This document shows positions 26,310 through 64,000 of a stretch of DNA of 64,000 nucleotides, in pieces; within the stretch, counting starts at the first letter, position 1, and each line of letters opens with the position of its first letter. The DNA lies in IMG/VR virus record IMGVR_UViG_3300032291_003679, positions 32,001 through 96,000 of that record; one strand, 5' to 3'. The DNA comes from a virus. The notes beneath the pieces are model-generated. The model was not told the origin of the DNA. It ran no database searches and was given only the letters and a program-made list of their open reading frames with translations. Both the position numbers and the translations under genes were made by a program.

Positions 26310-26548
26310 TGCTTGTCTTCTGCTTCTTTTTTGGCCTGATTAATTATCCATGTTGTTTCTGCGTTCATATTGTCAAGCCACGGGTGTGATTTAGCGAAAT
26401 CCGCCACTTGTTTAGCGCCGTCTTCTGCAGAATAGTCAATGCCAATCTGTCTAAACAGGTCGTAGATGTCTTCACATTCAGGAATGTCAAGTGTTCTGAA
26501 TTTTATAAAGTCTGCATTTTCTTGCGAATTGTCTATATTCATTGTCAT
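26306..26548 (-). CDS. hypothetical protein
   Basis: ATGA coupling on both sides. Confidence 0.6.
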   Translation of the reverse strand: MTMNIDNSQENADFIKFRTLDIPECEDIYDLFRQIGIDYSAEDGAKQVADFAKSHPWLDNMNAETTWIINQAKKEAEDKQ

Positions 26549-29500
26549 ATCATTACCGCCACTGTTTTATCGCCCATCTGAATTCCGACTCTTGATAGGT
26601 CATTTGAAAATCCGTATAGATTTGCCATACCCGAGGTGAGGCCTCTATTTTTGTGTTCTTTAGAGACTTTTGCTTTACCAACATTGCGTCCACCAGCAAA
26701 CGACATAGACGCAACTGGCTTGGTGTTCTTCGCTTCAAACATGCTTGCCAGAATGTCTGACTGTGTTGACATCTTGTCAAAAAGCCCTTGTATTTTTCTG
26801 TCGCGAACCTTGAGGTATTGTTCGTGGGTAAAGACTTTGACCATGCCGTTTGTTCCAGCAACCATCCAGTAATCTTGCTTTTCTCCAGTTGCAAAATCAG
26901 TATTGCGAACTCTACGAGCTCCAGACACTGGTCCTTTTGTGAACTTCTTCGTGTTGCCTATCCTCTTTAGCTGCATTGAGCCGGTGTTGAACTTGTTCGA
27001 ATTAAGGTCACTCAGGGCTGCGCTAACTCGCTTTACGGATTCTTCATCAAGCGTAAAACCACCAGTTCCACCAGAATCTATAAACGCTGGACTGACATCT
27101 TCTCCACTCTCAAGAAGTTCCCAAAGTTTATTAAGGTTAGTTACTGCAATCTGGTCCTCTCCTAGTCCCATATCTGCAGCTTTGGTAAGGTTTTCTTCAG
27201 TATTTGGATAAACATCTACTACGTCAAGATAAACGGTTCCATCAGATACCCATCCACCGATTGTGGTTTTTTCAGCACCAGACTTAGGTTCCATAAAGGT
27301 CTTTGGTCCGTGGAAGTCCATCCAAGCCAAGAACGTGTCAACCAGTTCGTCTGATGGGTTTCCCTCGGCATCAAAGTCAGCCACTGCATCTACCTTCATG
27401 CCGTGCTTATTACGAGCAATCGCTATGCCTTCTTTGATGTCGTCCATTCGGTCGACCTCTACAGTGAAGCCACCCATAAACCCCTTTGTCAGAGTCGACT
27501 TAACCGCTGCAACGCGTTCTGGGTCTCTATTAAACGTGACTTTTATGTCGGCAGCTCGCATGCGCGCTTCAACAAAGTTGTACTTGATTACTTTTCCTGA
27601 AGAAAGACGATTTGAATTCTTCGAGGGAACAGGTCCAATGTTGTCTATTGCGTTGTCGTAAGTGTCTATTGTCGAACGGTAGGTTTTATTTTTTTGTATT
27701 TTAAGAATTTCTTCGTCGCTCATGTTGTCCAACAAAAGCATCTCGTTGCTTATGAAGTCTAGGAATCTAGAAAAATGCTCGCCTAAGTAGTCGCCACCCC
27801 TGCCGTCAATATGTCTGGACTCGTATAGTTCATTTGCATCATAAGTTCTGTTTTTTAGATACTGACGAACAACACCTGCATCTGACATTTCTGATTCTCT
27901 ATAGGCTCTCCCTACTTCTTTCCTAATTTCAGATATCGGCGGAATGCTTCTCTTGGCTCTAGCCCCAGAAGAAAGTTTTGCCGTTTGGCCCGTCATGGAG
28001 TCAAATTCTGTTTTAAATTCGTCAATATCGAGTGCTGCAAGCCTGTGATATGGCGGGTTTGTTTGTTTGTCTCGGTCGCTAAAGCTTGCGTTGATTAGTT
28101 TTACAAATTCTTTATCTTCATCGCTTTCAACACGCTTAAGCACCTCGGCGGGGAAAAATACAGATGGTGGCGTCATCATCATTGCTTCGGTCGGGCGACC
28201 AAGCAGAACTACTTCATCTTCGCCCAGACATCCAAAGCCGGTTAATGGATTTGAGAATATATTCTCGATAGGGACATACGCTTTAATAAGAATATTGTCG
28301 TCAAATAAATCTGGGTTGTCTACTTTTCCTGTCAACGATGTAGCGAAAGCCTGTGCCATGGAGCTGTTTGTTGTCCATGAAGAAAGAGGACGCATAGAAA
28401 CAGTATCTGCTTTTAGCTCTCCTCTAGGTACGCGCATTTCTGGAGTACCCTTCATGCCTCTCCATACCGCAACATGGGTAACGCCTTTTGTTTTGTAGTA
28501 ATGCTGTGTTGCTTCGTATATTGCAGACACCACAGAACGAACGGCTGCGCGTTGTTTTTCACTCAAAGACGGCGCGTCGTCGAATTCTAGGGCTGTCAAC
28601 TCTCCTCTTTCTTCAGGGTCAACTGCATCACCAAACCCGCTACCGGAACGAGGCAAGCCGCGAATGCCGCCATTCCATCCAACTGCTTCATCAAGTCCAA
28701 ACATTTCTCTTGCTTCGTGCTGTATAGCCAAAGCAACCGGGTTTGAGTTGTTCGCAGAAATAGCCCATGTATGAATGATGTCTGAAACTATCGCTGCCGC
28801 TGCTTCTCTTTCCCCCTCAGGGGTGTCGATATCAAAAAACGAAATACCTGAAGTGTATTCATATCTGTTCTTAAAATCTTCAGCAAAACCAGCAGAAGCT
28901 CGCAGCCTATTTATTAGAAAACCTTTAAATAGCTCTTTTGTTTCTTCGGAATCGATATTGGATTTATCAACAGTGATTATTCCCGCTTCAGCGATTTTTC
29001 GAAGGTATTCGTCAGTAAACCCGAGTTCCGACACAACCTTGACATAAGCTTTTCGCTGTTCCGGCGTTTGTTCGCTATCTGGAATTATTTTTCCATCTTT
29101 AATTACTGATTTTAGTAATTCAATCGGCTCACGCGGAGATAAGCCTAGTTTTGAAATTATGGCGTAACCATTTTTTCCAGTGGTAGGGTCAACCTCTCCT
29201 ATGGGGGAAAAAGCTACGACTAAGTCACTGCTTCCTCGTAGCTCTTCTCCACTCCGTATTCCTTTTGAGAATTCTTGAAGCATGTCACGTATGCGTAGGC
29301 CGAGCTCCATTTGTTTTTTAATGTCGTCTCCACCAACTTTAGTAAGGAGGTATGGAGTAAATATCGACTTCTCATCACCTATGTATATGTTGGTTAAGGC
29401 GTCCCACTCTGGACCAAAAAGTTCATCAAAAGAACGAGCTTCTAGTTGGTCAATCATTTCGTCAAAATAAAAACGACGTTGAATTATTTTGTCATGCTCT

Positions 29501-32500
29501 GTAACGGACACTAGCGACCCTGTAACTCTATCTACAGCAAATCTTCTAGCCTTTTTGCGTTCTTCATCTGTTTGAGCTTTATCTACTGCTTCAAAAACAG
29601 ACATTAACGCTTTAAAATTGCGAGCCGCCGAAAAAAACCGTCGCTGCAGTTGAGCGTCAGATATTCCAGAGCCTGTTATCTCGGCTTCAGAAAAAGCTTG
29701 TATAAATTCTCTTGGTTTAATTTTTGCTGTTTGAGAAAGGTTTAGGGAAATCATTCGTTTTGCAGCAGAACTTGCCTTGCGGTCCTCCATTGGGGCAAAC
29801 ATACTGACGCCAAAACCATGAATTTTATTTGAAGATTTTGCCCCTAGCTCTTTAAGTATTGGGTCTTCAGGAATTTGGGCAACGTCATTTTTTAGTTCAT
29901 CGCTAAGGTTGTATTCTCCCGGAACAGGGAGGGACTCACGTAATTGCTCTGATGGTTCTGAAGCGAAGGAGACCAAGGACTCTGGGCGCTCTGGGGCCTC
30001 GAAGGTGTAGTCGGGTTTGCGTTTCGACGGCTCTTCCTGTTCTGAAGATTCGTCCCCAGCCCCAACCAATTGACGAAGCGCTCTAGAAATACGACCGCGG
30101 CGCTTTTCTCTTCCTGGCTTTGCCTCCGCGCCAGAGGACAACGACATGCTGATTGATGGGCGGCCATCGGGACGCGCTTCCCACGGAAGGTTGTCTGGGT
30201 TAACCCCAGCTAGTGCGTAAATATCACGGCGAAGCTTGGGGCTCAGTATGTTTTTTGCCAAGTCCTTGTTTGGGTGCATGATTGCAACAAAAGCTTCAGC
30301 GATTGCTTCACGCTTGTTTACATTTCCATAAGATGTTGCAAGGAGAGCTTTGTCTGGGTGCGTCTTAAACATCTCGCCAGCATCACGGCCGGTTAGGTCA
30401 ATGAACTGAGAGTAAATTTCAATTGCTTCGTTATCAGTATCGGGATTTGCGTACTCTTCAGCTACGTCTAGGGCTGCACGGTACATAGGGTCGTCGAGCT
30501 TGCCACTTCCATAATACGTTTTTGACCCCCCAGAACTATTCGTTTCCAGGTCACGTATTGCTCTGTAGTGAAGCCAGTGGCCGTACTCGTGAATCAACGT
30601 CCCATGGAGCGAGCGGTCGATATGCGCCTCTCTGAGTCCTGGTTTCCGATTTGGGTCAAGCTCTAGTGGATACTTGGCCCCTACGTTGTCGTACGATTCT
30701 CTGTCGATAAGTGCGCGTGGCGTTAGGCCGACAAAACCAAACTCGCGAGATGCGAGTCCACTAACAAATGGAGTTTTTTCCATGCCACGCTGCTGGCGAA
30801 GAAGCTCCATTCTTTCCTTTACGTCAGGACGCCCCTCGTACTCGTTCATTGCATCTCTTGTAAATACACCAACAAGTGGTGCGCCAAAATTTTCAAACAT
30901 CCACTTCATTTGTGGAGAAGAATCAAGCATGCTGCGAACCAGTTCTCGAGACGCCTCTAGCCCTTCTGGAGAGTAATCAATTCTCAAGGCATTTTCATGT
31001 CCATCGAGCTGGTCGTAGTACTGCTTTAGATATTTTCTGTACTTTCTGTCTTTGTTCCAGCCAGTTCCAGCCAGGTCATCAGCCCACATCTCAAAATGCT
31101 CTTCTTTACTGGAAGGTACAAGAGCAAGAGACATTTCCTCGGATGTCATTCCTGCTAGCCATTTTGTTGAAGACCTACGTACTTCTTTGCCCGAGGCGTC
31201 TGCTTGCCCGTAGCCCTTAACTCCACGCTTGCCTGGCTCTACTGGTGTGCGTTCTGACACTCTTCTCATTGGAATAAGCGGGCGTTGTCTTCCGGAGCTT
31301 AGGCTTTGATTGTCGTCATCTGAGATGCGGCCAGAAGAAAGACGGTCGCTTTTTCCTAATGCGTCATGCGCAAGGGCAAGCTCAACATCTTTGGCGTCGG
31401 CTTCATAGATTGACTTGCGTCCAGAAGATAATTTCCCGCTAGTAGATACTGCATCAAATTTCTTAACAACCGAATCAAAATCACCGGCATAGACGCGTAC
31501 CGCAACGCCCGTATCAGGGCTTGTCATATCAGTAATATCAAATACGCTTCTTGGTCTATTACGAAACGACTCTGATTCTCTTTGGTTTTGCTCCTGCTCG
31601 TCAAGCCTGCCTGTATGCAGCATCCGCTGAGCCGAGTACATCATATAGGTGAGATGCTTTACGGCTAGTTTTTCTTGCGGCGTCAATGGTGAGTCCGGAT
31701 GGTCAACGATAGAAAACATCGCTAAGTCATTGGCCCATTCTCCATGACGGTCAAAAGCTCTTCCGGTTCCGAGGTGTCCAAATAAGTCATGGGAAGCCTG
31801 AAGTGCTTTACCATCAAGCCCCATATTGAATTTAGACGGGTCGGTTATGCCACCGATGTACCCACGAAGATAAGTACTCGTGCTGGTGCTAATTCTGGAA
31901 CCTGGAACAAAAAGCTCCTCGTCGCCCATCAGTTCTCCAGCGCGACGTGAAAGCTCTCTAAGAAACTGGCTGTGTTTTTTCCATGCCTCAAGATATGGTG
32001 CGGGCAGTCTGTCTTGCGCTAAAGCCCGAAGACCGATGTCATCGCCTCTAATGACGAATCCTTTTGGAGCTACCATTTCCAACATTGGGAATCTAGCTCT
32101 TGCTTCGTCGTTCTCGTACTCTAAAACGGAACCGGAAGTTTCGTTCTTGTATATTTGTCTAGCAACAATATTCCCGTCAGTATCTTTCCATACTGAATCT
32201 TGAAAAACAAGCGTATCTTTCATTGCTTCATCAAGTATTGAAATAACGTCATCACGCTTAGGCAACTCGACGGTACGCCAGTCTCGTTTGTCCGGTATCT
32301 GTTCTGCCATTTGAGGTATCGGGTCAGCAGAAACAAACGGAATTCCGTCTGAAGAAATGTCAATCGAAATTGATTCAAGCAGTTGTTTTCCGGTTTCAGA
32401 AAACGCATCGTCTATTTCAACGTCAAGAAGCGTTTTGCCCGCAATTTCTCTGGTTAAACCTGGAACCTCTCTCTCAATAATTCTTTTTTGTTGGTCGGTT

Positions 32501-35500
32501 AGTGTTGTTTCGGTTGTTTCTTCTATTTTTTGTATTATTCGTTCAGCAACTTTTTTGCCGGTCAATACTTCCCTGTTGGAACCAGACTCGGCAGCTTCTT
32601 GCTGAGTTACTTCTATGGGTTCATTAAATGCTTCAACTACATTTGCGCCAGAAGAGAGTCTTGTACTTTCCCCTTCGTCGTCCAGATATATCTTATCGTC
32701 CGAGAATCTTTCATCATTTTTAAGGTCACCAATAGCGCGGTTAATGGCGTCAAGAAGAGACATTCCTTCTTCTTGATACTTGTCCCTTAAGCGCCCGAGC
32801 TCTTCTGATTCAAGCTTTTTTAAATCAGCATTAAATGTGCGAAGTTTGTACCGTGAACCATTTTCATCATATACAAGTTTAAATCTTTTATTTTTTTTCT
32901 CATTGAAAATTTCAATGTCTTTTATTAATTTTTGCAACGTGTTGCGCGTTGCGGTATACCCGTCTCTTCCTCGTGGCAGATATATAAGTAGGTTATAAAG
33001 TGAGTTATATGCAAGTTCGTCGTCATACACGTCGATGCTTACGTTGGCAGTCAGCTCACCATTTTTATAAATCGGGCTATAAGCATAGCCATGTTTTTCA
33101 ATAGATTCTTGTTTTATTTTTTCTCTGTAATTTTCGTCTTCTTCAAACAGGTTTTGAAGCCTGTTCCATTCTTTGACCATTTCTTCAAAGGTGTCGAACC
33201 GCTTCCCGAAAACGTCTTCGCTGGCTTGCTCAAAAGCTTCCTGGTTGAATCCGTTTTCATCACGGCTCCCAAGGCGTCTGCCGCCATACCCACTATATCC
33301 ATCATGGTATTCATAACGAGCGCGATATTCGCCCATTAGTCCTATGGGCCGTTCTTCTTGATTAAGAATATAATTACGGGCATTGCTTCTTATCTTGTAA
33401 CTAGTTTTTTCATTATCTGAGATGCGGCCAGAAGAGAGATAGTCTTTTATTTCTTGAGGTGTTCTTATTCTGTATTTTTGTCTTCCTCTTTTTTTTGATT
33501 CAAATCTTTCAAAAATTTCAGGAAATTCACCTATGAAGAAGTAGGCATTAGAAAGCGGTATCTCTAGTTCTTGAGACATTATTTTGATGTCTACTTCTCT
33601 GTCTGCATTGTCCTCTGTCCATTGCAGTGTTCTTTCAAATTCGTCTTCGCCGTAGGAAAATGATGCTCTTTTTAGTTTTTTCTTTTTTCGCGCTAAATCA
33701 ACCATTTCGAGTATTGCGTCATACTCTGCTTCTCCAATTCCTCGCGCTCGCGGCATTCGTGTTCCGCGGCGGTTATTTCTCGGAATGGGCCCATATGCTT
33801 CGTCGTAAAGACTGTCGTCGCTCGCAACTCTCCCTGCCATGGCCTCCGGTGAAGGTTTTTTTAGCGGTTCTTTTGTTGGCCTGATTGGTCTAAGACGTCT
33901 TTTGAAAATGTCACCTTGCTCTGTCTCTGTTTCCGCCGATGTTTCGGCATACTCTTGAGGTGTCAAAAAATCAGCTTTATCTTTTTCAAACTTTTCTACA
34001 TCTGTGTTAAATTTATCGTTGTCGGCTTTTAGTTTTGCGTCTCTTTTTTCTTTATCCAAGACGTCAGTAGACCATCTGTTTTCAATGGCTCTATCAATTA
34101 TCTTCTGCATAACCTGACTGGTTGCAAAAGCGTCAGCATCGGCGTTGTGGTGACCCTCACCTAATTCAACATCCAAATACTTAGTTATTGCAGCAAGACT
34201 GCTGGATGGTTTCTTGTTTCCATCTCTATCGGTTGTGTAGGGGCCCTCTGGGCTCTCTTCGCTCCACACGGGCAACGTCATTGCACTTATGTCTCTTGTG
34301 TCAAGATAACCAGAAGGACGCCAATCAATCCCGCTTTCACTCAATGCGTCTTCTAGAACGTTCTTGTCAAACGTGGCATTCTGGACGCCAATGATTGCAT
34401 TTGGCCCAATAAACTCAGCAACTTGCCTATGGGCTTCTGCCATTGGCATCTGCGTAGCGAGCCATTCGTTCGTTATTGGATTGCCGTCTGCGTCCTTAAG
34501 GTTTTTCAAGGACCATTCGCCGAGAGATTCTTCGGGGTTCATGTATAAATTTAAACGACCAATTTCTTTGCCGTTCTTTATTCTTGCTAGACCTATTTGT
34601 ATTGGCTTACCATTGCTTGACGCTTTGCCAAATTCGTCAAAAGTCAGACCAGTTGTTTCGTAGTCAAGGAAGACCATTTCGGTTTCGTTGTATCGCTCTT
34701 TAAATTCTTCCCACGAACTGACGCCATCAAACCTCTTCTCTGCGTCACCAAGGAAAGCACCAAGCGTTGGTTCGCGTGGATATCGTGGGGCCTTACCACT
34801 GCTCAGTGTTTGCCGTGAATCAGTTGCAGAATCCGCATTGTTGTAAAGTTCACGAACCTTCTCGCTAGACATAGCCAGATATGCGTTTTCAGTAAGAATT
34901 AGCTTTTCTGGGTCTATGTCCCTGAAACCCATGCTTTCCCAGTACTCCTTGGAGCCAGGGGTTGATTCAAGGCTTATGCCAGTATTGTCGTCATTTGCTA
35001 TTTTTAAAATGTCACGGAAAACAGAGCTTCCCAGGTTGTCTATCCCGGATTCTTTTCCATAGCTTGCCATATGGTGGATGAATAGATTGTCGTTATCCCC
35101 TCTTCCGCCTCTTCTAAAACGTGCAGCACCAACAATATTATTGTTTGAATCTCTAGCTACTACTAACGACCTGTCAACTGGGTTTGGTTCGCCAAAAAAA
35201 TCAGAATCACCAAATACTTTGTCCATCTGTATTTTTGCTTCAGCAAATCTTTGAGGAACTTTTCCATCTGGATACTTTTCTTTAGATAGCTTTTTGTATG
35301 AATCATCTGCTTCTTTTTGAAGATTGTAAAAAGATTCTCTGATTTTTTCTACATTGTCGTATATTGCGTCACTGTAAGCATCGACATCAAAATCGCCGTC
35401 ACTATTAAGGAATTCAGGGTCGTCTTCGTCGATTATTGTTTGCTCAACAATGCTGGTAGACACGTTTTCGTCGCGGGTGTTTTTGCCACTAGATAGGCTT

Positions 35501-36984: not shown

Positions 36985-37022
36985 CTAAATAAATAATACC
37001 ATTGGGGCGCATTAGGGCTGGT

Positions 37023-40177: not shown

Positions 40178-40204
40178 TACGCCCTCCCTAAATATTAACG
40201 GGGG

Positions 40205-40618: not shown

Positions 40619-40646
40619 CCGGCAAGAGACTTCTTACCGTAGCTTT

Positions 40647-41812: not shown

Positions 41813-41825
41813 ATAATATATTAAA

Positions 41826-44175: not shown

Positions 44176-44179
44176 CGTT

Positions 44180-53003: not shown

Positions 53004-56000
53004 AGACGACCCCCGTAGGTAGAGGTGATTCTTGGCTTGCTTGACTTTTTCATGTCCTTAAGCATTTCTTTAGCCATTGCGATTATTTCGCTAGATATTG
53101 ATTTTGCAAGAACTGATTCGACAGACTCTCCCTTTCCTGCCGTTTTAGAATGAGAGCGTGGGTCTTCTATGTTAAATCCACGCGGATGAGCAAATTTCAC
53201 GTTATTGAATCCGCGCTCTGAAAAGCTGTTTTTTATTTTTTGAGAAGCTCTATAATTTCTGAGCATCGCCATGCTTTCACTATTCATCATCTGACCGCCA
53301 CCAATAGAGTAGAAGTACTCAATTTCTTCTGGGGAAAATCCAGCGGCGCGCAATCTTTCGGCAATTGTTTTTGTGTTAACGATGTCGCTAATGTCTTCTT
53401 TTTCTGCTTCTTGTTCTATTTTTTTGAAAGGAACGTTTACTTGCTCAATGTCTGCCATGTCGAACCCACCAAGTATCTGGGCTTCAAATGGCTCACGAGA
53501 TGAACCTTCTGGAAGATTGGAATCAAAAGAGTTAGCCAGTTTTCCTTTTTTACCACGAGTAGCGTTGATGTTAGAAAAATCATTATTCAAAGACGCTGAA
53601 AGAAGGTTCATAAAAGCCTCCTGGCGCGTCTTTTCCCCATTTACACCGTCAGCGTTGAGAATGGCATCGGCCACGTCTTCACGATTGCGTGAATTAAGCC
53701 TCACTGGCCTGTGTGCAGTGCTAAGTGAATTTCCTCGACCGTAAGCAACTCGTTCCGAAACTCCCGGGCGAAGAACTATCTCCATGTCCCCAAGAGCGGT
53801 GAGTCCGTCACCCACGACATCTTGGTCGCCAATTTCAAACACAGCATCTGGCCTTAGATTCCCGGAGCCGTCTTTCATAACATCTTTTCGTTTGCTGTCA
53901 ATGTGTGATTTATGAATCAAATACCCGCTCACTGGTAGCTGGTCTGGTGCCACAGAATCCGGTATTCCGATACGCGCAAGGTATTCACGAACATAGTTCT
54001 CTGCAGATAACCCGACAGTGTCTCCGGATGGAGCCATGTCTGACTCCATGTCTCTTGTCTTTAATGTCGCCTGCGAGCGCCTAATCTTCGCCAGTCTTCC
54101 CATGTTGGCTCTTCCGCTAGACAGGGAGTTGCTTCTCTCTATGTCTGCAGCACGAATAATTTCGTCAAGTTGTCGTTCGCGCTCGCTAGAGATAGCGCTT
54201 GTTCTTCTTGTTTCAACCAAGCTTTGACGAACTTTTAGCGTTTGCGAGTATTCTGCATCATTTCTAAGACCAACGGAGCCAAGCTGTATAAAGTCACCTT
54301 CACTGTATTTTTCGTCAATGAGTCTTGGGCCGTTTTCAATTAAAAAAGCTTCGATAGCATCAATTTCTTCATTAGAAATATCTTCAATTCCCTGTGCTCC
54401 TGGAAGTCTCCCTTCTACCCAGTCATTCTCCGCCCCCAGCTTCGCCACCTTGATTCCCCACACATCTTGGAAAACCTTTCCGAGCGTCAGCCCTTCAACA
54501 ATGTCTGTTTGAACTTCATTTATGTTTAGTGGCATTTGAAGTTCTTCTGGCAGCGAGCGATTGGCTACAATCAGCGCCCCCCATCTGTGATGGCCATCAA
54601 GGATGTATCCATCTTTGGTAGCAAGAATTGGCTGCATAAACCACTCTTTGTTCATTTCGTCGAGGAATAGCTTTTTAAACTCTTCTGCTGATACCCCAGG
54701 ATTAGCTTTTCGCACTGCTTCTGCTTTAGCAACTGCAACTTCTTGCATTGTTTGCGCCGTGCCGTCGACCTTGCTTGCAACCAACTGCTGTTGTGATGGG
54801 GCTGCCAGGCCAGGGGCAACCTGCTTGCGCCTTACCGCAGGGCCATTATCGGGGTCTTCAACCTTTATCATCTTATTAAGCCAATTAATAAAAGGTGTTT
54901 CTAAGTTTACTTCGACATCATTCCAGTTTGTATTTGCGTATAGCCACTGTTTTGCTTCATCAGAAAGACTTTCGTACGATTCCTCTCTGTGTTGTGCTGC
55001 TGTCTTTTCGCCAAGCTCATTTCCAATAGAATGTTTTTTTGCTATAAGCTTGTACAGCATTTTTGGCGTATCTTCATCAGAAAGTGGCTCTTTACCTTTT
55101 TGTGCACGCTCTAAATTTTCTTTTGCAATATCTTTATCAAGGTCGTCCGCAAATTCGACTTCTAGTTTTCTGTTTCTTTCAATTTTTCCTAATGGTTCAA
55201 ATTTTCCTGCAGCACGCCCGGCAACAAGGGCGCGGACTGCAGCAGTGTCGTGGCCCTTTGTTCTTCCGTTTGTTTGAGGCATTTTTTCTCTGTCGATGCC
55301 TATATGTCCAGAACACATAAGATTTTTTGTTGGGTCATAAAGGGCGCACAGGTCTGCTTGGTAGCTCCCCACGTAATCTTTTTCCATTTTTTTGATAGTT
55401 GCAGGGTCGTCAAAATCAAAATCTCTATTTTCATTCATGTATTTTGATTTGTATTGCTCCCACTTCCAGTGGCCATTTTTTATATGGTCTTTAGCAATGT
55501 TTTTTACTTCATCTTCAAAAACTTTTTGTGCCTGTTCCGTTAGGCGAATGTCTTGCTCTTTTACTTCAACGTGATGACCAAGCATCATCATTGCAATAGC
55601 TGTTGGAACATCGTCTACTTCGTAAAGGTTTGGGTGTTTTTCACTTATTGAGAGTCGTGCTGACCGCCGCGCCAACCCGCCAAACATTTGGTTAATCTCG
55701 TCCTGGGTCATGTCGTCTATGTTTTTCCCATCTTCAATAACTTTATTGAAGATGTCTAACGCTTTTGTGGCGACTTCTTTTTCCTGGTTTCTACGAATTT
55801 TCAAGTTTTCTTGAGAATCTATAATTCTCCCCGAAGAAAGAGACCGCGATGCTCTTTGTTGGGGTGAAATGGAAGCCAATCTTTCCGCGCGACGTGATGT
55901 TCTTAGGTCTTCATCAGATGCGCTAGAAAAAGGGGAACGTATTCCAGCCCCAGATGAAAGACGCTCTATATCTTCATCTGTTGCTCTTACTCTGACTCTT

Positions 56001-59000
56001 CTGTCAAACCCTTCGTGCATTCTGTAGGCGGTCTCAGAAGCCCTTACTATTAAAAGCTCTTCTGGGGTCTCCGCAATTAGCTTTGCCACAGCTGGATGGA
56101 TATCTCCACGAGAAATGCTTCCGTCGCCTCTTCCGCCACCTAGTGCATCTTTTACGTTTCTTACGGTCGAGGACATGGAGGTGTTTCTTGAATTTGTTCT
56201 TTCTGGTCTTGTAGCAGGCTTGCCTAGAGTGTCTCCACTGGAAAGTGTGGTTCTTCCGCTCGAAAGATGCGGTGGAACTTCATCAAAACCTTCACCAAAT
56301 GAGCCACCAGCATCTATTATTTCATCAACCGAAACGCGGCTTGCGGTCACCGTCGCGTCGTCATAGTCGCTTCTAGGTCCAGGGAAGGTATCTCCAGAAG
56401 CGCGACGCTCAGTTACATACTTGTCGACCATCGCTTGTATTTTTTTGCCGTGGCTCTGCGCCCAGATTGCATCTGTTTTGTTCTTTGAAAGATTTTCTGC
56501 CATTGAGTCAACAACTTGAACAGTATCTTTTTGGTAAGAAATTTCAGCTCTTATCGTTCCGTCAGCGTCTCGTCCAATGATTCTTATCTTCCCAGGAGGG
56601 GCAACGAATTTCTGCTCGGTATCTCCGCCTGTAGTTGGAAACAATCCACGGTCGCCTTCGCGAACGGAAAGAATGACGCGTCGAGGCGTTCTTCCAGTTT
56701 TGGGGTCTTTTGTCCCTCGCGCTGGCATGTCTGTTTTTACGGTTCTGCTGGTAATTACTCGGCCGGAAACAAACTGTTCTAGGTCAATCTCTCTGCCTTC
56801 AACCTTGCCCTTAAGTTTGGATGGGTCAAAATCAATAATTGCTTCTATGTCAAATGGGTCAGCAACGGAAGTTTTATCTATCGCCTCCATGGTTGGTATC
56901 AGCAGTTTTTCTACTTGCTGAACAACGTCGCCTTCTGCGGAGGACATTGGGTCAATTTCTAGACCCAAGCGCTTGAGGCGTGCATTTCTCTTATTTATTG
57001 CGCGTCCAGCACGTGTCTGAATAACTGGGTCAAGCATTTTGCCTACGTCAGATTCAGAAACATCGCCCAACTCTTTCATGGCCTTTTTCTGCTCTGCGTT
57101 AGCTTTTACTCTTCTTCTTTCGCGTGCGCCATGGTCGGCTGCATCTTTAGCGTTCTTAAATTTTTTCTTCGGCTTGGGTGGTGGACTGATTATGTCAGTT
57201 ATTTTTTTGTCTAATTCTTTTTTGATTTGAGCTTTTGTTCTCTTGTCGCCAGAAGATTTAAGATTTTCAATGTATTGGTCACGAATGACTTCTATCTCGT
57301 CAGCAAGTTTTCTAAATTCGTCAGATGCTGGGTCGAGCGTAGAAAGACGCACTTCTTCATCTACAAGTTTCTGTACTATTTTCTTTTCGGGCATCGCCTT
57401 GATGCGCTCACGAAGGTCGTCTAGGTCAGCTTTGCGGGCGATTTCTGCCATTTCGCCCGGGTCTAGAAGACCTTCGCTTTCCCGAATAGAACGAACTGTT
57501 TCGTCAAATCTTTTCTTTTCTCCACTAGCGCCGACGCCGAATTTTTTACGCCAAATCTTGCTGGCTTCATCATATTTTTTGCTATGAAAATCGAGCTCTC
57601 TTTGGGCATCTCTAATTGCTTCGGATTTCGCTCTCTCCATAAAAATTCGTTCATCGTCAGCAAGTGACTCATCTATTTCGAATTCTTTATAACTTTCAAG
57701 TCTTCTAGAAGCGTCGTCTCTTTGTGAAGCTATTATTGCTGCCTCTGAGAACATGTCATCTTCTGCGAGTTCGGCAAAACTTGTTTTAAATTCTGCCAAC
57801 TCTGCTCTTAGCTCTGATGCGAGTCGAACATCCCTATCCTCAAGAGTTTCTTCAATTACGTCATCTGGCATATCTTCTGGAACAATTGTGTCGTCTGGAA
57901 TGCGAAAGACATCATCGAGCGATTCTAGGTCTGCCGTATCGTCGCTTTCAGCGCGAGCTCTTGAGGATTTAGAGAAAGATAATCCGTCCATCCATTCGAG
58001 AGCAGCGTCGACGTCTTCGCCGTAGATTATTCCACGTTCACGAAGTGCCCATATCTCAGCAGCGGCTTCCAGTGCCCACACTTCCGAGCCTTCGGTGTAT
58101 ACGTCTCTTGGATACGACCCAGCAAGTGGAGCAATTTTCTTAAGTCTCTCCATTGCGCTGTCTAGCGCTTCAAGGTTAATTGAGTCCGCAACGTCGGTCA
58201 TAATTGACATAATGTCGGAGCCGCTTAATGCATAAATTGAATCGACGTTACGAGAACCAACGACTACCCCATCCTTGATGATAGGAACACGTATGAAGCC
58301 CATCTCGTCTATCTCGTCTTGAATTTTTTCTATGAACACCTGCGCTTGCTTGTGGTGCGCTATTTCGTGAATCATAATGTGGCTAGAAAAGCCGTAAACT
58401 CCATCTAGCAGGCCTGCCATGCCTCTTGCCGAATAGTCGGCGTTGACCAAAAAGTCAGCTACAGCAAGACGACCTTCAGCTTCGCTTCTTGCTCCAACTG
58501 CAGAAATTGCGAGCCTTTCGTTTGGAAGCATGTCTGGCAACATTGTTTCTTGATTAGCAAGAATCATCCCCATGTTGACATGAATCTGGGTGCGAAGTTC
58601 TCCAGGAGTCTTCCCCATCACAGGATTTCCATCCCTATCAAGAACGGGGGTTCCGTCAGGCTTTAGTCGTGGACTAATTGACGGCGCATCCCTGTATACG
58701 GATGTTCCTGCTTCATCTCCTGAATCGAATCTGTAAACTATCCGCCCAATGCCACGCATGCTTTCTGGGTCTTTTACAAATTGGTCTATAAGTGATTCAA
58801 ACAAAGCTCTTTGTGTGTACTTGTACCTGTCAAAGTCAGACTTAAGAAGTCTGCTCTTTTCTTCGTTTGAAAGACCGCGCCATCCGGGAATGCTTTCTAG
58901 TCTTACTTCACAAAATCTTTCTATTTCTGAATCAAGTAGTAAAGCTGCGCCTTCACCAGAAGCATTGAGGACCTCTATGTCCCAGCCAGCTCTCCCACCG

Positions 59001-60175
59001 GAATCAACATGCATCTGCTGCAGGGCCCTAACTGCCAGTATTGCTGCATCTGGGTCTTCAGAATCAATACCAAGCGCGTCATATATGCGCGCTGCTTCCG
59101 CTTTCTGACGAGCAATATCATCTTGCCCGCGGATTGCACCGTTCTTGAAGAGACGCAAGTTCTCCTCAACAGGGATATCTCTCCACGATGGTGGCTTAAA
59201 TCTGTCACCAGAAATACTGTCCCAGTATGCAACTCGACCAAGAAAGGCTGGGTCTGCTATTTGCCTGGTTGACTTGCTGTATTGGTCGTTGTATAAAAAA
59301 TTAAAGAATGTTTTTGCATTGTTTCTTAGGCCCTCATATTGGCCTTCTGATTCAAGCTTTGCTGCTTGTCGTGCGGCAAATCGGGCGAACTTTGTTGGGC
59401 TAAAACCAAAACAGTTAGAGCCAGTAGCGTCAGTGAACTGGTTTGCAGCAGGCGTTCCAGGAGGGCATCTAAATTTGTTATTTTCATCGCGAAGAATGCC
59501 AAATACTGCAGCAGCACGTGAAAGCAGAGAGCCGCCTGGGACTCTCGATTCAAGACTGCGTCCAGGAAGCATCTTTTTCTCTATAAGGTTGTCTTTATAT
59601 TTACGAATAGACTTTTGTTTTTCTTCGTAACTAAGACCAGCGGCCATGCCAAAGGGGTCGACTATTTTTTCCGACTCTTGTATAACTTCGTCCGTCTTCG
59701 GATTTACTTTGTACTTGCTGAGCTTAATTGATGGCTTCGACCTATACATCTGAAGCATCTCTTCAAAGCTTGTTGGCGCATTTTTGTCTGGCTTAATCCA
59801 TCCAACGTTTGGCTTTGCGTCCATTCCTTCGCGCGACTGAAATGATGGACTAATGACGAGGGTGGAGCCAGGCTCCCATGTTGCCGCCCCTTCCCATCGA
59901 TAACCAAACTCGTTTGACTCCACGCCAGGCAAAGTGCCGCCCGTAAAGTCTCGTTTCTTTCCATCTGTATCTTCGTAGGTTTTTACCCTTATGCCGAACC
60001 CTTCCGTTATAGCTTTTACGGCTATATCGGCCTGAAGGCGGTTTGTTTCGATGGAAGCATTAATCGACTGCTTGAATCTGACAGCCTTTTCATTGAATCC
60101 GCCGCAGCAAGAGGTCGGCACCATGAGTCGTGCTGCAACTATTACTCTTTCCCGCGTTATTGGGGTATTCGCCAT
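53000..60175 (-). CDS. giant polyvalent protein (2391 aa): RCPxG motif, HExxH zincin, degenerate ART-like, ParB/Srx-like and DUF3626-like domains, 5 LSSG linkers
   Basis: HEIAH..EAAAE; EQKFVAPPG; R..MPQ, PSQ and ILDGHHRW; FEAQILGG..DIEQV. Confidence 0.8.
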   Translation of the reverse strand: MANTPITRERVIVAARLMVPTSCCGGFNEKAVRFKQSINASIETNRLQADIAVKAITEGFGIRVKTYEDTDGKKRDFTGGTLPGVESNEFGYRWEGAATWEPGSTLVISPSFQSREGMDAKPNVGWIKPDKNAPTSFEEMLQMYRSKPSIKLSKYKVNPKTDEVIQESEKIVDPFGMAAGLSYEEKQKSIRKYKDNLIEKKMLPGRSLESRVPGGSLLSRAAAVFGILRDENNKFRCPPGTPAANQFTDATGSNCFGFSPTKFARFAARQAAKLESEGQYEGLRNNAKTFFNFLYNDQYSKSTRQIADPAFLGRVAYWDSISGDRFKPPSWRDIPVEENLRLFKNGAIRGQDDIARQKAEAARIYDALGIDSEDPDAAILAVRALQQMHVDSGGRAGWDIEVLNASGEGAALLLDSEIERFCEVRLESIPGWRGLSNEEKSRLLKSDFDRYKYTQRALFESLIDQFVKDPESMRGIGRIVYRFDSGDEAGTSVYRDAPSISPRLKPDGTPVLDRDGNPVMGKTPGELRTQIHVNMGMILANQETMLPDMLPNERLAISAVGARSEAEGRLAVADFLVNADYSARGMAGLLDGVYGFSSHIMIHEIAHHKQAQVFIEKIQDEIDEMGFIRVPIIKDGVVVGSRNVDSIYALSGSDIMSIMTDVADSINLEALDSAMERLKKIAPLAGSYPRDVYTEGSEVWALEAAAEIWALRERGIIYGEDVDAALEWMDGLSFSKSSRARAESDDTADLESLDDVFRIPDDTIVPEDMPDDVIEETLEDRDVRLASELRAELAEFKTSFAELAEDDMFSEAAIIASQRDDASRRLESYKEFEIDESLADDERIFMERAKSEAIRDAQRELDFHSKKYDEASKIWRKKFGVGASGEKKRFDETVRSIRESEGLLDPGEMAEIARKADLDDLRERIKAMPEKKIVQKLVDEEVRLSTLDPASDEFRKLADEIEVIRDQYIENLKSSGDKRTKAQIKKELDKKITDIISPPPKPKKKFKNAKDAADHGARERRRVKANAEQKKAMKELGDVSESDVGKMLDPVIQTRAGRAINKRNARLKRLGLEIDPMSSAEGDVVQQVEKLLIPTMEAIDKTSVADPFDIEAIIDFDPSKLKGKVEGREIDLEQFVSGRVITSRTVKTDMPARGTKDPKTGRTPRRVILSVREGDRGLFPTTGGDTEQKFVAPPGKIRIIGRDADGTIRAEISYQKDTVQVVDSMAENLSKNKTDAIWAQSHGKKIQAMVDKYVTERRASGDTFPGPRSDYDDATVTASRVSVDEIIDAGGSFGEGFDEVPPHLSSGRTTLSSGDTLGKPATRPERTNSRNTSMSSTVRNVKDALGGGRGDGSISRGDIHPAVAKLIAETPEELLIVRASETAYRMHEGFDRRVRVRATDEDIERLSSGAGIRSPFSSASDEDLRTSRRAERLASISPQQRASRSLSSGRIIDSQENLKIRRNQEKEVATKALDIFNKVIEDGKNIDDMTQDEINQMFGGLARRSARLSISEKHPNLYEVDDVPTAIAMMMLGHHVEVKEQDIRLTEQAQKVFEDEVKNIAKDHIKNGHWKWEQYKSKYMNENRDFDFDDPATIKKMEKDYVGSYQADLCALYDPTKNLMCSGHIGIDREKMPQTNGRTKGHDTAAVRALVAGRAAGKFEPLGKIERNRKLEVEFADDLDKDIAKENLERAQKGKEPLSDEDTPKMLYKLIAKKHSIGNELGEKTAAQHREESYESLSDEAKQWLYANTNWNDVEVNLETPFINWLNKMIKVEDPDNGPAVRRKQVAPGLAAPSQQQLVASKVDGTAQTMQEVAVAKAEAVRKANPGVSAEEFKKLFLDEMNKEWFMQPILATKDGYILDGHHRWGALIVANRSLPEELQMPLNINEVQTDIVEGLTLGKVFQDVWGIKVAKLGAENDWVEGRLPGAQGIEDISNEEIDAIEAFLIENGPRLIDEKYSEGDFIQLGSVGLRNDAEYSQTLKVRQSLVETRRTSAISSERERQLDEIIRAADIERSNSLSSGRANMGRLAKIRRSQATLKTRDMESDMAPSGDTVGLSAENYVREYLARIGIPDSVAPDQLPVSGYLIHKSHIDSKRKDVMKDGSGNLRPDAVFEIGDQDVVGDGLTALGDMEIVLRPGVSERVAYGRGNSLSTAHRPVRLNSRNREDVADAILNADGVNGEKTRQEAFMNLLSASLNNDFSNINATRGKKGKLANSFDSNLPEGSSREPFEAQILGGFDMADIEQVNVPFKKIEQEAEKEDISDIVNTKTIAERLRAAGFSPEEIEYFYSIGGGQMMNSESMAMLRNYRASQKIKNSFSERGFNNVKFAHPRGFNIEDPRSHSKTAGKGESVESVLAKSISSEIIAMAKEMLKDMKKSSKPRITSTYGGRL

Positions 60176-60189
60176 CTGGCGTCCCCTTC

Positions 60190-61761
60190 TTAGTTGTCGT
60201 CTAGGGTGTCTTCGAGCAACTGGAACTCGACAAGAGAAGCCATGAACTCAGCGTCACTCAAGTCGCCAACTTTTTCTTCTCCGCCAGCAATCCAATTGCC
60301 AGGAATCATGCTTTCGAGCTTAAGTGCACGAGCACGCTTCATGATGTGCTTCTTTGTTGCCTCTTTGTCTTTTGCTCGTCCATATGCCTGGATAGCATTG
60401 CGCAAGTCGGTTTCAGAGACAATTGGGTATGAGCCATCTGCCATTGCTTCGCCGCTCTTCGCCAAGTCAAAGCGACGCTCTTCAGAGAAAGCGCGCTTGA
60501 GGGCAATTTCTGCAGCTTCTGCTTCGATTTCTTCAACTTCGTCAGCCTCGTACTTGTCGTAACCCAGAACCTCTCCGTCTAGGGCGACAAAAACGTCGTA
60601 CGACTTGCCATCAAATCCTTCGATTTCCACAGCGTATGCATCAAAGCCTTCAAATACGTCTGGCTCTACGGCGATTACTGTTCCGTCGATTGATTTAACT
60701 GCAATTTCAGCAGCTTCCGTGAAGTCAATAAGGTGGAAGTCACCAATATCTGACTTTTGTTCAAAGCTAGAAGAGTCAAGCTTGTGGAAGCCAAGTATCT
60801 CTGCTGATTGACCGTCAATGAAAACTTCATTGACCGAGCCATCTTTAACCTGAACGTCAACAACAAACATGTCTGCGTCTGAAGAATATCCAGAATCTAC
60901 GACAACACCGTCGAACATCTTTTCAGCAAGGCCTTCTACGTGAAGAATTCCTGGCATTCCTTTTTCTGCAACACATCCGCCAGGACAGTCGTCGCACACC
61001 GGAGAAGAGCCGCCATAGGCTTTGCGCTCAATTGCGCAAACATAACCGGTTGCGCCAATGTCGGAAGTCTTCAAACCCATGGATTTGATTCTCGAACGAC
61101 GAATTTGTTCCCATTCAGAGTCGCGAGCCGAGAAAGACTTTGTACCCATTTCTGCGTACTCTTCCTCGTCTTCTTCGTCCTCTTCTTCTTCGGCAACATC
61201 TTCTTCTTCTTCTTCGTCTTCCATCATTTCTTCGTCTTCAAGTTCAGCTTTCATGCCTCGCATTCTGCGCATGCGCTGTGCTCTGCCGCCGCTTGAGCCC
61301 ATCATCTTTTCTTCGTCAGATTCCATGTCCTCTTCGTCTTCAGGCATTTCATCTTCGTCGATTTCGTCTTCTTCGACCATTTCTTCGGCGTCGTCTTCGC
61401 TCATCATGACAGGAGCACCCTTTTTCTTGGGCATGACAGCAGCAAGTTCCTCTTCGGTCATTTCTGGCTCTTCCTCCTCATCAATCATGTCCATGAGTGC
61501 GTGTCCAGGCTTTTTGCCGTCCATCTTTTTCTTCACGGCGACAGCTGCTGTTGGGTTAAGCGCGTCTTCTGCCTCGATAGTTTCTTCGTCCTCTTCAGAG
61601 GATGCTGGAACCATCTTCATCTCGACAGGCATAGCACCACACTTGGCGCATAGCTCTGCTCCCTTGACGAAACCGCAATCTCCAGCGGCTGCGCCTTTGG
61701 CGCACTTCAAGACATTGCCGTCACCGTCAATGCTTACAGTAGCTTTTTCGTCGTACTTCAT
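60190..61761 (-). CDS. acidic scaffold-like protein with tandem PepSY-like domains and C-terminal DGSYPI domain
   Basis: Very acidic middle; EAAEIAVKSIDGTVIAVE..YAVEI..DGEVL (PepSY); AMADGSYPI..DLRNAIQAYGR. Confidence 0.7.
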   Translation of the reverse strand: MKYDEKATVSIDGDGNVLKCAKGAAAGDCGFVKGAELCAKCGAMPVEMKMVPASSEEDEETIEAEDALNPTAAVAVKKKMDGKKPGHALMDMIDEEEEPEMTEEELAAVMPKKKGAPVMMSEDDAEEMVEEDEIDEDEMPEDEEDMESDEEKMMGSSGGRAQRMRRMRGMKAELEDEEMMEDEEEEEDVAEEEEDEEDEEEYAEMGTKSFSARDSEWEQIRRSRIKSMGLKTSDIGATGYVCAIERKAYGGSSPVCDDCPGGCVAEKGMPGILHVEGLAEKMFDGVVVDSGYSSDADMFVVDVQVKDGSVNEVFIDGQSAEILGFHKLDSSSFEQKSDIGDFHLIDFTEAAEIAVKSIDGTVIAVEPDVFEGFDAYAVEIEGFDGKSYDVFVALDGEVLGYDKYEADEVEEIEAEAAEIALKRAFSEERRFDLAKSGEAMADGSYPIVSETDLRNAIQAYGRAKDKEATKKHIMKRARALKLESMIPGNWIAGGEEKVGDLSDAEFMASLVEFQLLEDTLDDN

Positions 61762-61876
61762 ACAACTCCCGTTAGTGCAGGGAAATGACCTGATAGACCA
61801 TTAACCAATAAATGTCTTTAATTATAACCTATCACGCTATACACGCGTGAATTAGCAACATCTGTTTCTTCTGTTT

Positions 61877-64000
61877 TTATTTATCTGGATTCTTTGAATT
61901 TTTCTTGTCCACCCAAAGGCTATTGCCGGATTCGACTCTCTCTCTTGCTGTTCTTAACTGCTCGTCGCTAAATATGTCATCAATTGTGTATCTTGTTCCA
62001 AACATCTCATTAAATCTGTTAACCATTGACTGCAGTTCACTACCCGAGAATCGTGGCTCGTTACCCTTACTTGGGGTCCACACCGAACCCCTGTTCTGCG
62101 TGGCCGCTTCTAGGGTGTACGCCAGGTCGGTAGCTTCGATTATTTTGTTGCGATTTTCTCTGGTATTAAGTTTTGGAAAACTCTTGTCGATAAATTCGTA
62201 AAGAGCCTCGTAGACGGCGTATTTTGGCCTCTTCATCTCCGTGTCGAACCTCTCGCCAGTATCAGATTCTTTCCATACCGATTTTGCGTCTGGAAGAACT
62301 CCATTGCGAATCATTTGAGCAATTGTTGCAGTAGGAATTCCTTTTCTTCTCCACGCATCATTGATTCCGATGGAATCCGTTCCAAAGGCTGATGAAAGTC
62401 GCTCCTGTAGACCCTTCTTCCATTCTTTTCTATCAATTCCAAGATAATCAAGAAGCGAATCAAGGTCGAAGTCTTCTATCGCGGTCTTGTCATCTCTGAT
62501 TATTTCCCCAGAATCATCTATAGAGCCTTCTTCTGGCAGAAGCATGTCAAAAGATTCACCATAAAGGTCTATCTCTGCCTCAGAATCTCCTCTTGTTGCA
62601 CTGTCTGGATAAAAACGGCCCGAGGCTCTAAATTTAGATGTTTCACTTACTTCTCCAAGTTGAACATATTCCTCAGGGGTCATTGATTGATTTTCTTCAA
62701 CATCAAACCAATATGGGAACGCATCTTTGCCAAACGTTTCAATAATGAATCTGTCACGCATATTTGCGCGGCCAGCATTTTCAGATGCCAAATCAATTTG
62801 CGAAATGTCTTCTATGATGTCGCCCTCTGGGGACTGCACTACTTTTTTGGCTTCATTTGCAGAAACTGGAGCAAAGTATCTCCACGCTGAAAGCTCTTTC
62901 TGCTTACCGAGTTCAGCAATCAAGAGGCGCACAGCGTCGTGGTTGATTCCAGCATCTGGTTCTCTCATCTTTGCTGCGTTAGCAGGGCTCAACCCAAGCA
63001 TCTTAGAGATTTCATCCCTTGTTGCTGGTCGTGACTGTGTCCACCTGATTGTCGAACCGTCTTCGGTATTAAAATTTTCTCTTGAAGTAAATTCTGTTGG
63101 GATTCTTATCGTGTCAGCAAGCTTGTCAATAGAGAGCATCCACGTTTCGGCCGACGGATTCTCGTTTTTGTTGTTGTCACTAATTTTGCCAATACGCACA
63201 CGTTCTTGACGTGCTTTCATCGCTTTGCCAACGTTCTGCATTGCGCCGCGAGTGCGTGATTGACGCACCGGCACTGAAAGCGAGTCGTCATCTATGTCAA
63301 TCGCTATGCCGCGCTTACGTACGCCGTCCCATGCCTGCATGGCGAACTGAAGTGCTTGTCTGTTTTTGCTGGAGTTTGGGTCTCCGTTTATTCTCAATCC
63401 GGCGAGCTGTTGTGCGCTTAGGCTACCTCCGTAGATATTGCTTCCAGAAATTTTTCTGCTTCTACGTGTCAGGCGTCTGCTTCCATCGGTGGTTGCTCCA
63501 CTAGACAGTGTCATTCCTAGAACGTCGTCGATGTCACCTTCGTCAACTACTTCATCATCGTCGTCACCTTCTGGAAGTACGAAATCGTCTTCTCCAGGTT
63601 TTCCATCTTCACCGAATTCGTAATCTTCTTCATCAATTTCAGTAATGATGCCTTCAACTTCTTCAGAATCACCATCATCATCAACTGGTACAGGAACCAC
63701 AATAACTTCGTCGTCTTTTTCATCAGTAGGACGAGCTGGGAATCCATTTTCCAGTTCTGAAAGCGACATGGCATTAATTGCCTTGTACCAATCTGGAAGA
63801 GGAATCCCGTCCTTATCACCGAAGGCTCCTCTATCAAGCTCTGGTGGGATATGCCCATCTACAACAGCTTGCTTCATTGCATCACGTATTGCTTTTGTTC
63901 GCTCGTCATGCAAGTAATAAAAGAAACCAGCATTGCCTGGGTCTAACATTTCTTTTGCGCGGGAGAATGCAACATGGACTAGGTTTCCCTCTTCCATGAA
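61877..64000 (-). CDS. C-terminal part of another large head-region protein with an LSSG linker (5' end outside window)
   Basis: Frame is open to the window edge; MTLSSGAT at 63497-63508. Confidence 0.75.
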   Translation of the reverse strand, partial: FMEEGNLVHVAFSRAKEMLDPGNAGFFYYLHDERTKAIRDAMKQAVVDGHIPPELDRGAFGDKDGIPLPDWYKAINAMSLSELENGFPARPTDEKDDEVIVVPVPVDDDGDSEEVEGIITEIDEEDYEFGEDGKPGEDDFVLPEGDDDDEVVDEGDIDDVLGMTLSSGATTDGSRRLTRRSRKISGSNIYGGSLSAQQLAGLRINGDPNSSKNRQALQFAMQAWDGVRKRGIAIDIDDDSLSVPVRQSRTRGAMQNVGKAMKARQERVRIGKISDNNKNENPSAETWMLSIDKLADTIRIPTEFTSRENFNTEDGSTIRWTQSRPATRDEISKMLGLSPANAAKMREPDAGINHDAVRLLIAELGKQKELSAWRYFAPVSANEAKKVVQSPEGDIIEDISQIDLASENAGRANMRDRFIIETFGKDAFPYWFDVEENQSMTPEEYVQLGEVSETSKFRASGRFYPDSATRGDSEAEIDLYGESFDMLLPEEGSIDDSGEIIRDDKTAIEDFDLDSLLDYLGIDRKEWKKGLQERLSSAFGTDSIGINDAWRRKGIPTATIAQMIRNGVLPDAKSVWKESDTGERFDTEMKRPKYAVYEALYEFIDKSFPKLNTRENRNKIIEATDLAYTLEAATQNRGSVWTPSKGNEPRFSGSELQSMVNRFNEMFGTRYTIDDIFSDEQLRTARERVESGNSLWVDKKNSKNPDK

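Follow-up and report, generated by a model that had tools for sequence, protein, structure and literature searches.

Analysis of bases 32001-96000 of the IMG/VR virus record IMGVR_UViG_3300032291_003679, a stretch of 64,000 nucleotides referred to here as the window, revealed that the tetrapeptide Leu-Ser-Ser-Gly (LSSG) marks the boundaries of swappable modules in giant proteins of an uncultured phage, whose complete genome comprises 158,021 bp with direct terminal repeats. The giants are designated G1 (3479 amino acids, aa), G2 (2391 aa) and G3, and the motif also occurs in the tape measure protein of the same genome. LSSG is considered, with modest confidence, to be a genome-wide junction and processing signal separating independently folding, swappable modules in these four proteins, which are probably delivered together with the DNA. 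Judging from the sequence patterns described below, the signal would most likely be a cutting signal for a protease.

Occurrence and conservation of LSSG

Translation of the three long minus-strand open reading frames reproduced exactly all 17 LSSG positions listed in a preliminary description of the window, which had been drawn up from the letters alone. That description put the chance expectation at less than one copy per giant, and the amino acid composition gives 0.22 copies for the three proteins together (Poisson P = 1.5e-26); in 2000 shuffles of the giants, the mean was 0.25 copies and the maximum 3. LSSG is the commonest 4-mer in the three giants, where any other 4-mer reaches at most 7 copies, and the proposed x-LSSG-(K/R/A) context is found in that Lys, Arg or Ala directly follows the Gly in 16 of the 17 copies. 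The other six-frame LSSG matches in the window (28607, 31285 and 58055; plus strand) lie in antisense frames within the giants. The restriction of the motif to giant proteins holds within the window but not across the genome: the three full-length giants contain 20 copies (0.26 expected), and the other ~40,000 aa of the proteome contain 2, both of which (aa 36 and aa 607) are located in the 1601-aa tape measure protein encoded after the sheath, tube and chaperone genes (L011:8802-13607:+; genome 119802-124607). Similarly, the partial protein reported with a single LSSG does carry that copy, but the full-length G3 has 3020 aa and 4 copies. The motif had also been called invariant; it is conserved in homologous giants, but aa 1255 of G3 is the start of LASG where the homologues have LSSG.

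Regarding the relatives of the giants, eight IMG/VR loci carry G2 and G3 homologues with 65-70% identity, all of which contain LSSG, and four related genomes encode G1 homologues with 9-10 copies each. A related-locus search with G1 itself found none, and the G1 relatives were obtained by a separate genome search. A database search with the G3 protease region, which belongs to the S78 family as described below, retrieved at least 280 clusters of S78-headed giants (1951-4759 aa); LSSG ranks first among the 4-mers in most of the 120 clusters listed, averaging 8.2 copies and reaching 18 at most. In the G1 family, LSSG is the top 4-mer in 28 of 37 proteins and is abundant in 35 of them. When the S78-headed giants and the G1 family were pooled (157 proteins), 1299 copies were counted against 15.5 expected; position 1 tolerates Phe and Met and position 2 tolerates Ala, while positions 3 and 4 are strictly Ser and Gly. 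Two of the checks suggested in the preliminary description thus speak for the motif: LSSG is far ahead of all other 4-mers in the three giants and leads in most of the listed relatives, and it is kept in homologous giants, including the loci at 65-70% identity, the G1 family and the S78-headed clusters. The motif system was not found in Cantare and GMA6, which are cultured relatives as judged by the capsid protein. As an observation on placement, the protease-headed giants P0051, P0052 and P0053 end 6-10 residues past the final G-LSSG-R with only a short basic tail, showing that the motif can be near the C-terminus.

The 17 copies in the window are spelled by 15 different 12-nucleotide strings, and AGY serine codons are used in 7 of them. 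The many codon spellings therefore indicate selection on the peptide, as had been proposed. They also contradict a DNA-level or recombination artefact, in which a repeated oligonucleotide would happen to encode the peptide. CTT TCT TCT GG is indeed the most frequent spelling, but the AGY serine codons are unreachable from TCN by one substitution, and the pooled copies of the diverged relatives retain the strict Ser and Gly, so that such an artefact is hardly credible.

The form of the motif depends on the lineage. The variant sets, which are FSSG-rich, G-LASG-G and D-G-[FL]ASRG, each occupy their own part of the protease tree. In the LASG lineage, a separate G2-like giant also uses LASG, and in an FSSG/LSSG lineage, the next giant uses both forms. 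The two tape-measure sites, which are conserved in four close genomes, are LSSG/LSSG here, LASRG/LASRG in the [FL]ASRG lineage (L047) and LGSG/MASGG in the LASG lineage (L048). Within a given genome, the separate giants and the tape measure switch variant in step, so that a single shared, trans-acting reader per genome appears to be implied.

Module boundaries and structural models

BLAST comparison of G1 with its homologues revealed that the homology blocks are arranged differently from genome to genome, with LSSG at the block ends of both partners. In the genomes G001 and G002, for instance, blocks 1439-1887 and 1898-3009 of G1 have changed places. Across all family pairs, a motif is found no more than 15 aa away from 52% of the internal block ends in the G1 family (random positions: 10.5%) and from 31% in the G3 family (random positions: 10%). 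The linkers in the alignments of G2 and of G3 are rich in substitutions and indels, and the LSSG copies stand in them as invariant islands. The distance between motifs is domain-sized (median 163 aa, interquartile range 61-322 aa), and closely spaced tandem sites 7-36 aa apart also occur. Hydrophobic residues are scarce in the flanks (0.17 vs 0.28, p about 1e-255), which are acidic before the motif and basic after it.

Two AlphaFold2 models, of G1 aa 1-1200 and G3 aa 600-1320, cover eight sites. The G1 sites at aa 497, 727 and 1183 fall in segments with a predicted local distance difference test score (pLDDT) below 50, and the site at aa 129 falls in a block of pLDDT 56 at the edge of domain 131-483; sites 497 and 727 directly flank confident domains. 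In G3, the site at aa 656 is disordered and just ahead of a confident helical hairpin, and the site at aa 826 is just past a segment of pLDDT below 50, at the edge of a modelled region. The LSSG at aa 857 and the LASG at aa 1255 are in coil or loop with a pLDDT of about 70. No helix or strand core contains any of the eight modelled sites. The preliminary description had placed LSSG in polar inter-domain segments and had named its location inside folded domains as evidence to the contrary; the hydrophobic-depleted flanks and the positions in linkers, loops or domain edges agree with that placement for the eight sites.

These data also bear on the alternative that LSSG is a short linear motif of another kind, such as a docking site for a chaperone, the capsid or the portal, a tail translocation or unfolding signal, or a site of Ser modification, or else a site of a host protease. 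The motif-bearing giants and the tape measure are all expected to pass through the tail, the genome-wide covariation fits any shared reader, a host factor included, and two of the G3 sites are in modelled loops instead of free linkers. On the other hand, tandem sites 7-36 aa apart, the location of the motif exactly at permutation break points, the domain-typical size of the modules and the suitability of small residues for protease sites all argue for a cutting signal, and a literature search brought up no docking or modification motif with this pattern. A function other than cleavage by a phage protease is thus rated as unlikely.

The putative reader of the motif and the proposed fate of the giants

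A prohead protease had been expected upstream of the window, and one is indeed encoded by the N-terminal domain of G3, just past the window end. The domains of G3 are an S78 protease (aa 32-175), ArdC-N (877-968), MPTase-PolyVal (1027-1149) and a UvrD-type helicase (~1300-2333). The first of these matches Peptidase_S78 (PF04586) with 44.1 bits against a cut-off of 21 and phrog_80 with E=4.6e-27, and its His70 (W-G-H) and Ser134 (W-S-I-G-Y), assigned from motif position and not from structural superposition, are invariant in 20 homologues. A PDB sequence search with G3 aa 1-650 gave no match. The G3 gene directly follows the portal gene, and the S78 domain shares ~42% identity with the maturation proteases that are separate proteins in the actinophages with the closest capsid proteins, namely Gordonia and Brevibacterium myophages. 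On this evidence, the phage carries its own capsid maturation protease, of the HK97 type (S78), at the N-terminus of G3, and, because of the identity to stand-alone proteases, the locus appears as an ordinary portal-protease-capsid module enlarged by roughly 14 kb of cargo. The G3 protease may cleave off the delta domain of the capsid protein, in which an N-terminal extension of ~100 aa and a K-S-I-G junction like that of HK97 are present. A separate feature of G3 is the presence of three tandem ~25-33-aa repeats (aa 749, 774 and 807) in the low-pLDDT region between LSSG aa 656 and aa 826; they contain LSQG and LARG as variants of the motif, with R-K-P-(E/G)-F-V after each.

In the proposed mechanism, the giants would be made as polyproteins and loaded into the procapsid, which G3 would enter by virtue of its maturation protease domain. 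A trans-acting phage protease would then cut at or next to LSSG to give enzyme-sized pieces with the median length of the modules, and among the released pieces would be an anti-restriction unit of the ArdC type, a helicase, an exonuclease and zincins. Packaging of the giants in the capsid is suggested by gene position and by the protease fusion, and the cutting may take place in the prohead or after ejection. A candidate packaging or capsid-targeting tag is a basic motif of ~30 aa with the core G-R-L-G-R...G-S-R...R-P-x-I-G, which in this genome is restricted to the G1 N-terminus and the G3 segment just ahead of the first G3 LSSG (L010 about 9170-9275) and is missing from G2; it is highly conserved in the G1 and G3 families.

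Several points weigh against this mechanism. No cleavage product has been observed, and the clade has no cultured member. The two G3 sites at pLDDT of about 70 are modelled with moderate confidence and are not disordered. Neither LSSG nor a variant of it was found in the capsid protein, the scaffold-like p523 or the portal, whereas T4 and phiKZ share a motif between capsid protein and cargo. An L(S/T)SR sequence near the presumed HK97-like delta-domain junction of the capsid protein was judged an improbable site and discarded: the giants contain fewer LSSR copies than expected (5 vs 13), and the capsid protein of the [FL]ASRG lineage has no equivalent. Moreover, the tape measure carries the motif outside the head, and cutting it ahead of tail assembly would defeat its function; therefore, the tape-measure sites must be read after assembly or ejection. 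The combination of a motif-free capsid protein, p523 and portal with a motif-bearing tape measure thus renders a simple model, in which a head protease acts in the prohead, incomplete, and the parallel with T4 gp21 and phiKZ gp175 drawn in the preliminary description fails at the same place. In addition, an R-LASG-R sequence at aa 209 of p676, one of the head-module proteins, was set aside as a chance occurrence on account of its lack of conservation in relatives.

Two readers come into question within the protease explanation, the S78 domain and a zincin, and they are about equally probable. In the former case, the S78 capsid maturation protease would itself cut the sites inside the prohead, in the manner of T4 gp21 and phiKZ gp175. 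Every genome of the clade has S78 joined to cargo that bears the motif, and 18 S78-headed giants without any HExxH still have 6-12 motifs. In 108 of 120 proteases, an unchanged TLRAQ (aa 139-143) comes just past the catalytic Ser134; this stretch is altered only in two clades, both of which are motif-shifted: TIDSV accompanies [FL]ASRG, and TINAK accompanies one FSSG-rich clade. Proteases of the assemblin fold prefer small residues, with Ser at P1' (A|S in herpes, K|S in HK97), which also counts for the S78 domain. Against it stand the motif-free capsid protein, scaffold-like protein and portal, and the tape-measure sites, which co-vary with the motif yet are outside the head. Furthermore, the LASG clade and the other FSSG-rich clades retain TLRAQ, and the covariation represents two evolutionary events only, so that it is a lead and not a result. 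Cutting by S78 in the prohead is regarded as somewhat doubtful.

In the latter case, a phage zincin (the MPTase-PolyVal of G3, the HExxH of the G2 core or the HExxH module of G1) would cut, possibly after ejection, thereby freeing the enzymes and processing the tape measure. Each giant contains exactly one HExxH. The MPTase-PolyVal match of G3 is strong (PF18818, E=3.9e-40), and the G2 core with its HExxH is kept in all four lineages examined, one of which has a G2-like protein without motif copies. If the zincin acted after ejection, the sites in the tape measure and the lack of the motif in the capsid protein would both be accounted for, and processing by embedded peptidases has already been proposed for polyvalent proteins (PMC5512222). 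MPTase-PolyVal is undetected in G1 and G2, however; their HExxH modules have no Pfam match and are only putative proteases, and hhalign comparison of the three HExxH modules revealed no homology past the motif helix. The N4 virion RNA polymerase (vRNAP), ArdC and TraC1, all of which carry MPTase, are reported to be transferred uncleaved (PMC5512222), and on the 18 giants without HExxH a zincin would have to act in trans. A zincin is put forward tentatively.

Extending the cutting-signal explanation to the whole clade, one may picture LSSG, FSSG, LASG and [FL]ASRG as a lineage-specific tetrapeptide code of a large uncultured actinophage clade. The code would be read by a single phage protease, possibly the cargo-fused S78 domain, in which residues 141 and 143 change in the two motif-shifted clades, and every delivered protein, including the tape measure, would consist of cassettes that are swapped among phages at the code and cut on delivery. 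This broad version is possible, but it is held only as a conjecture.

Relation to known systems and genome context

Polyvalent proteins are giant chains of conflict enzymes for which packaging, delivery along with the DNA and processing by embedded peptidases have been proposed, and which evolve in a mosaic manner (Iyer, Burroughs, Anand, de Souza, Aravind 2017; PMC5512222). The same study likens them to viral polyproteins and describes MPTase-PolyVal as a domain proposed for autoprocessing (PMC5512222). The giants resemble them in that unrelated enzymes (ArdC-N, MPTase-PolyVal, helicase and nuclease, with GNAT and ART in homologues) are encoded beside virion genes. Several unrelated conflict or effector domains share a chain, namely S78, ArdC-N, MPTase-PolyVal and UvrD in G3 and RNase_T and the HExxH module in G1, and homologues of the giants add ART, GNAT, pentapeptide and sigma-70 region 4 domains; the hallmark MPTase-PolyVal is present in G3, and the proteins are encoded among the virion genes of a portal-terminase phage. 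The earlier view of the giants as polyvalent effector chains is thus borne out by G3 and the homologues, but among the giants within the window, only RNase_T exceeds the Pfam threshold, the GNAT matches in G1 are below it and G2 has no Pfam match. Pfam searches of ten LSSG-delimited modules at E up to 1 gave sub-threshold GNAT hints only, tblastn of G2 against cultured phages gave no match, and a protein-atlas search with G2 aa 300-900 gave weak, unnamed matches only. Unlike the giants, in which one tetrapeptide code spans three proteins and the tape measure and varies by lineage, polyvalent proteins have no shared junction or cleavage peptide defined, and their assemblin-like peptidases are reported only at the C-terminus, whereas S78 is N-terminal here (PMC5512222).

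Prohead proteases of T4, phiKZ and SPN3US cut several packaged and ejected head proteins at short motifs, which are L/I-x-E for T4 gp21 and A/S/G-x-E for phiKZ gp175 and SPN3US gp245 (PMC5694885, PMC10052503, PMC9026906). A repeated short cargo motif conserved in relatives is found here as well, but its occurrence in both capsid or scaffold protein and cargo is not. The substrates of those proteases are separate small or medium proteins, in contrast to chains of 2400-3500 aa with up to 11 sites, and the protease of the present phage is of the HK97-type S78 family and fused to cargo, with the motif in the tape measure and not in the capsid protein. As in the HK97-family proteases (PF04586, MEROPS S78), G3 aa 32-175 matches the family profile above the curated threshold, has the His and Ser motifs and is positioned after the portal; in contrast to them, S78 is followed by ~2800 aa of cargo in the same chain, and ~14 kb of extra genes lie between it and the capsid gene. 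Among eukaryotic viruses, polyproteins are cut by clan CE cysteine proteases at (M/I/L)xGG|x in adenovirus and at GG|x in pp220 and pp62 of African swine fever virus (ASFV). Both cases share with the giants a core or cargo polyprotein split by a repeated short motif of hydrophobic and then small residues, but this is an analogy only, as the viruses are unrelated, and no adenovirus- or ASFV-type protease domain was found here. A literature search for LSSG together with phage and protease returned nothing relevant and no description of the system.

The protease-headed, LSSG-jointed giants would accordingly belong to the polyvalent or cargo-protein type, with a newly defined junction code. Polyvalent cargo is thought to be processed, yet it has so far been without a defined site grammar, and the ~1300 copies in 157 proteins supply one. 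The code gives an exact, testable prediction of each cut and product, and it allows thousands of residues of unannotated phage sequence to be parsed, most of the modules here being without a known family. In addition, the system is a case from nature in which cassettes are exchanged at fixed joints. Where and when the reader acts is the question raised by a capsid protein that lacks the motif and a tape measure that carries it. If the clade-wide code is real, it would give bacterial viruses a counterpart to the polyprotein strategy of eukaryotic viruses, one whose site grammar is defined and can evolve.

The phage is a myovirus, for which terminase, sheath, tube, chaperone and tape measure genes were found. 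The gene order on the minus strand is portal (701 aa), G3, the acidic p523, G2, five smaller genes and the capsid protein; terminase, sheath, tube and tape measure are encoded near this module, and the G1 gene is located past the replication genes. The nearest relatives of the capsid protein are those of Gordonia and Brevibacterium myophages (46% identity), and two WhiB-like genes (PF02467; 59.8 and 56.2 bits) are present at window 39920-40138 (-) and genome 8008-8199 (+). The WhiB-like genes, together with the actinophage-like capsid protein and protease, make an actinobacterial host likely. The coordinates of the features are given in Table 1.

Table 1. Features of the window discussed in the text, in window coordinates
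Feature	Position	Strand	Remarks
G1, giant polyvalent protein, 3479 aa, 11 LSSG junctions	26545..36984	-	homologues with 4-13 LSSG; modules permuted, break points at LSSG
~30-aa basic motif, G1 aa 26-58	36811..36909	-	BLAST 61% identity, E=3e-4 to G3 aa 556-590
LSSG G1 aa 129	36589..36600	-	N-terminal edge of confident AlphaFold2 domain 131-483
LSSG G1 aa 497	35485..35496	-	within pLDDT<50 segment 484-518; homology-block end
LSSG G1 aa 727	34795..34806	-	tail of pLDDT<50 segment 586-729, directly ahead of exonuclease domain
DnaQ/RNase_T-type exonuclease domain, G1 aa 771-958	34111..34674	-	Pfam PF00929 E=1.2e-8; phrog_192; Foldseek: Pol III epsilon, ExoI
LSSG G1 aa 1183	33427..33438	-	within pLDDT<50 segment 1094-1200
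LSSG G1 aa 1443	32647..32658	-	start of homology block permuted in G001/G002
LSSG G1 aa 1852	31420..31431	-	
LSSG G1 aa 1882	31330..31341	-	homology-block end
LSSG G1 aa 1895	31291..31302	-	homology-block start
HExxH zincin-like motif, G1 aa 2132	30577..30591	-	nearly invariant in family alignment A2; MPTase-like only around motif helix
LSSG G1 aa 2282	30130..30141	-	
LSSG G1 aa 3004	27964..27975	-	homology-block end
LSSG G1 aa 3127	27595..27606	-	start of conserved C-terminal module, 79% identical in homologues
Major capsid protein (HK97 fold), no LSSG	46978..48342	-	PF05065 E=3e-41; phrog_10; alignments A1, A3
Five small/medium head-module genes (171, 217, 676, 226, 221 aa) between G2 and capsid gene	48499..53003	-	no conserved motif copies
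G2, giant head-module protein, 2391 aa: conserved core aa 1-1303, then LSSG-separated modules	53000..60175	-	
HExxH zincin-like motif, G2 core aa 603	58355..58369	-	conserved in G2-like proteins of three other lineages
LSSG G2 aa 1304	56255..56266	-	
LSSG G2 aa 1311	56234..56245	-	present in 4/4 genomes, in indel-rich linker
LSSG G2 aa 1406	55949..55960	-	LASG in two homologues
LSSG G2 aa 1446	55829..55840	-	invariant in 4 genomes
LSSG G2 aa 2018	54113..54124	-	
p523, very acidic, scaffold-like, between G3 and G2, no motif	60190..61761	-	acidic equivalents in other lineages likewise motif-free
G3, C-terminal 707 aa in window	61877..64000	-	full protein 3020 aa, L010:1877-10939:-, genome 93877-102939
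LSSG G3 aa 2478	63497..63508	-	invariant in 20 homologues with variable flanks

Two further observations concern the window at large. The G+C content is 0.52-0.57 in positions 1-16000 and 0.42-0.47 in positions 16000-64000. Five consecutive head-module proteins, G2, p171, p217, p676 and p221, each have exactly one Cys-Cys-(Gly/Asp/Ser)(-Gly) motif, which is located at aa 23 of G2 (window 60107-60109 region), aa 131 of p171 (52488-53003), aa 10 of p676 (49831-51861) and aa 112 of p221 (48499-49164), and which in p217 (51845-52498) forms the final three residues of the protein. Genome-wide, 16 Cys-Cys dipeptides were counted against 6.3 expected, most of those outside the five head-module proteins being in doubtful small reading frames. 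Cross-linking inside the head through metal or disulphides is one guess at the role of these motifs, and the G2 copy is kept in three related genomes.

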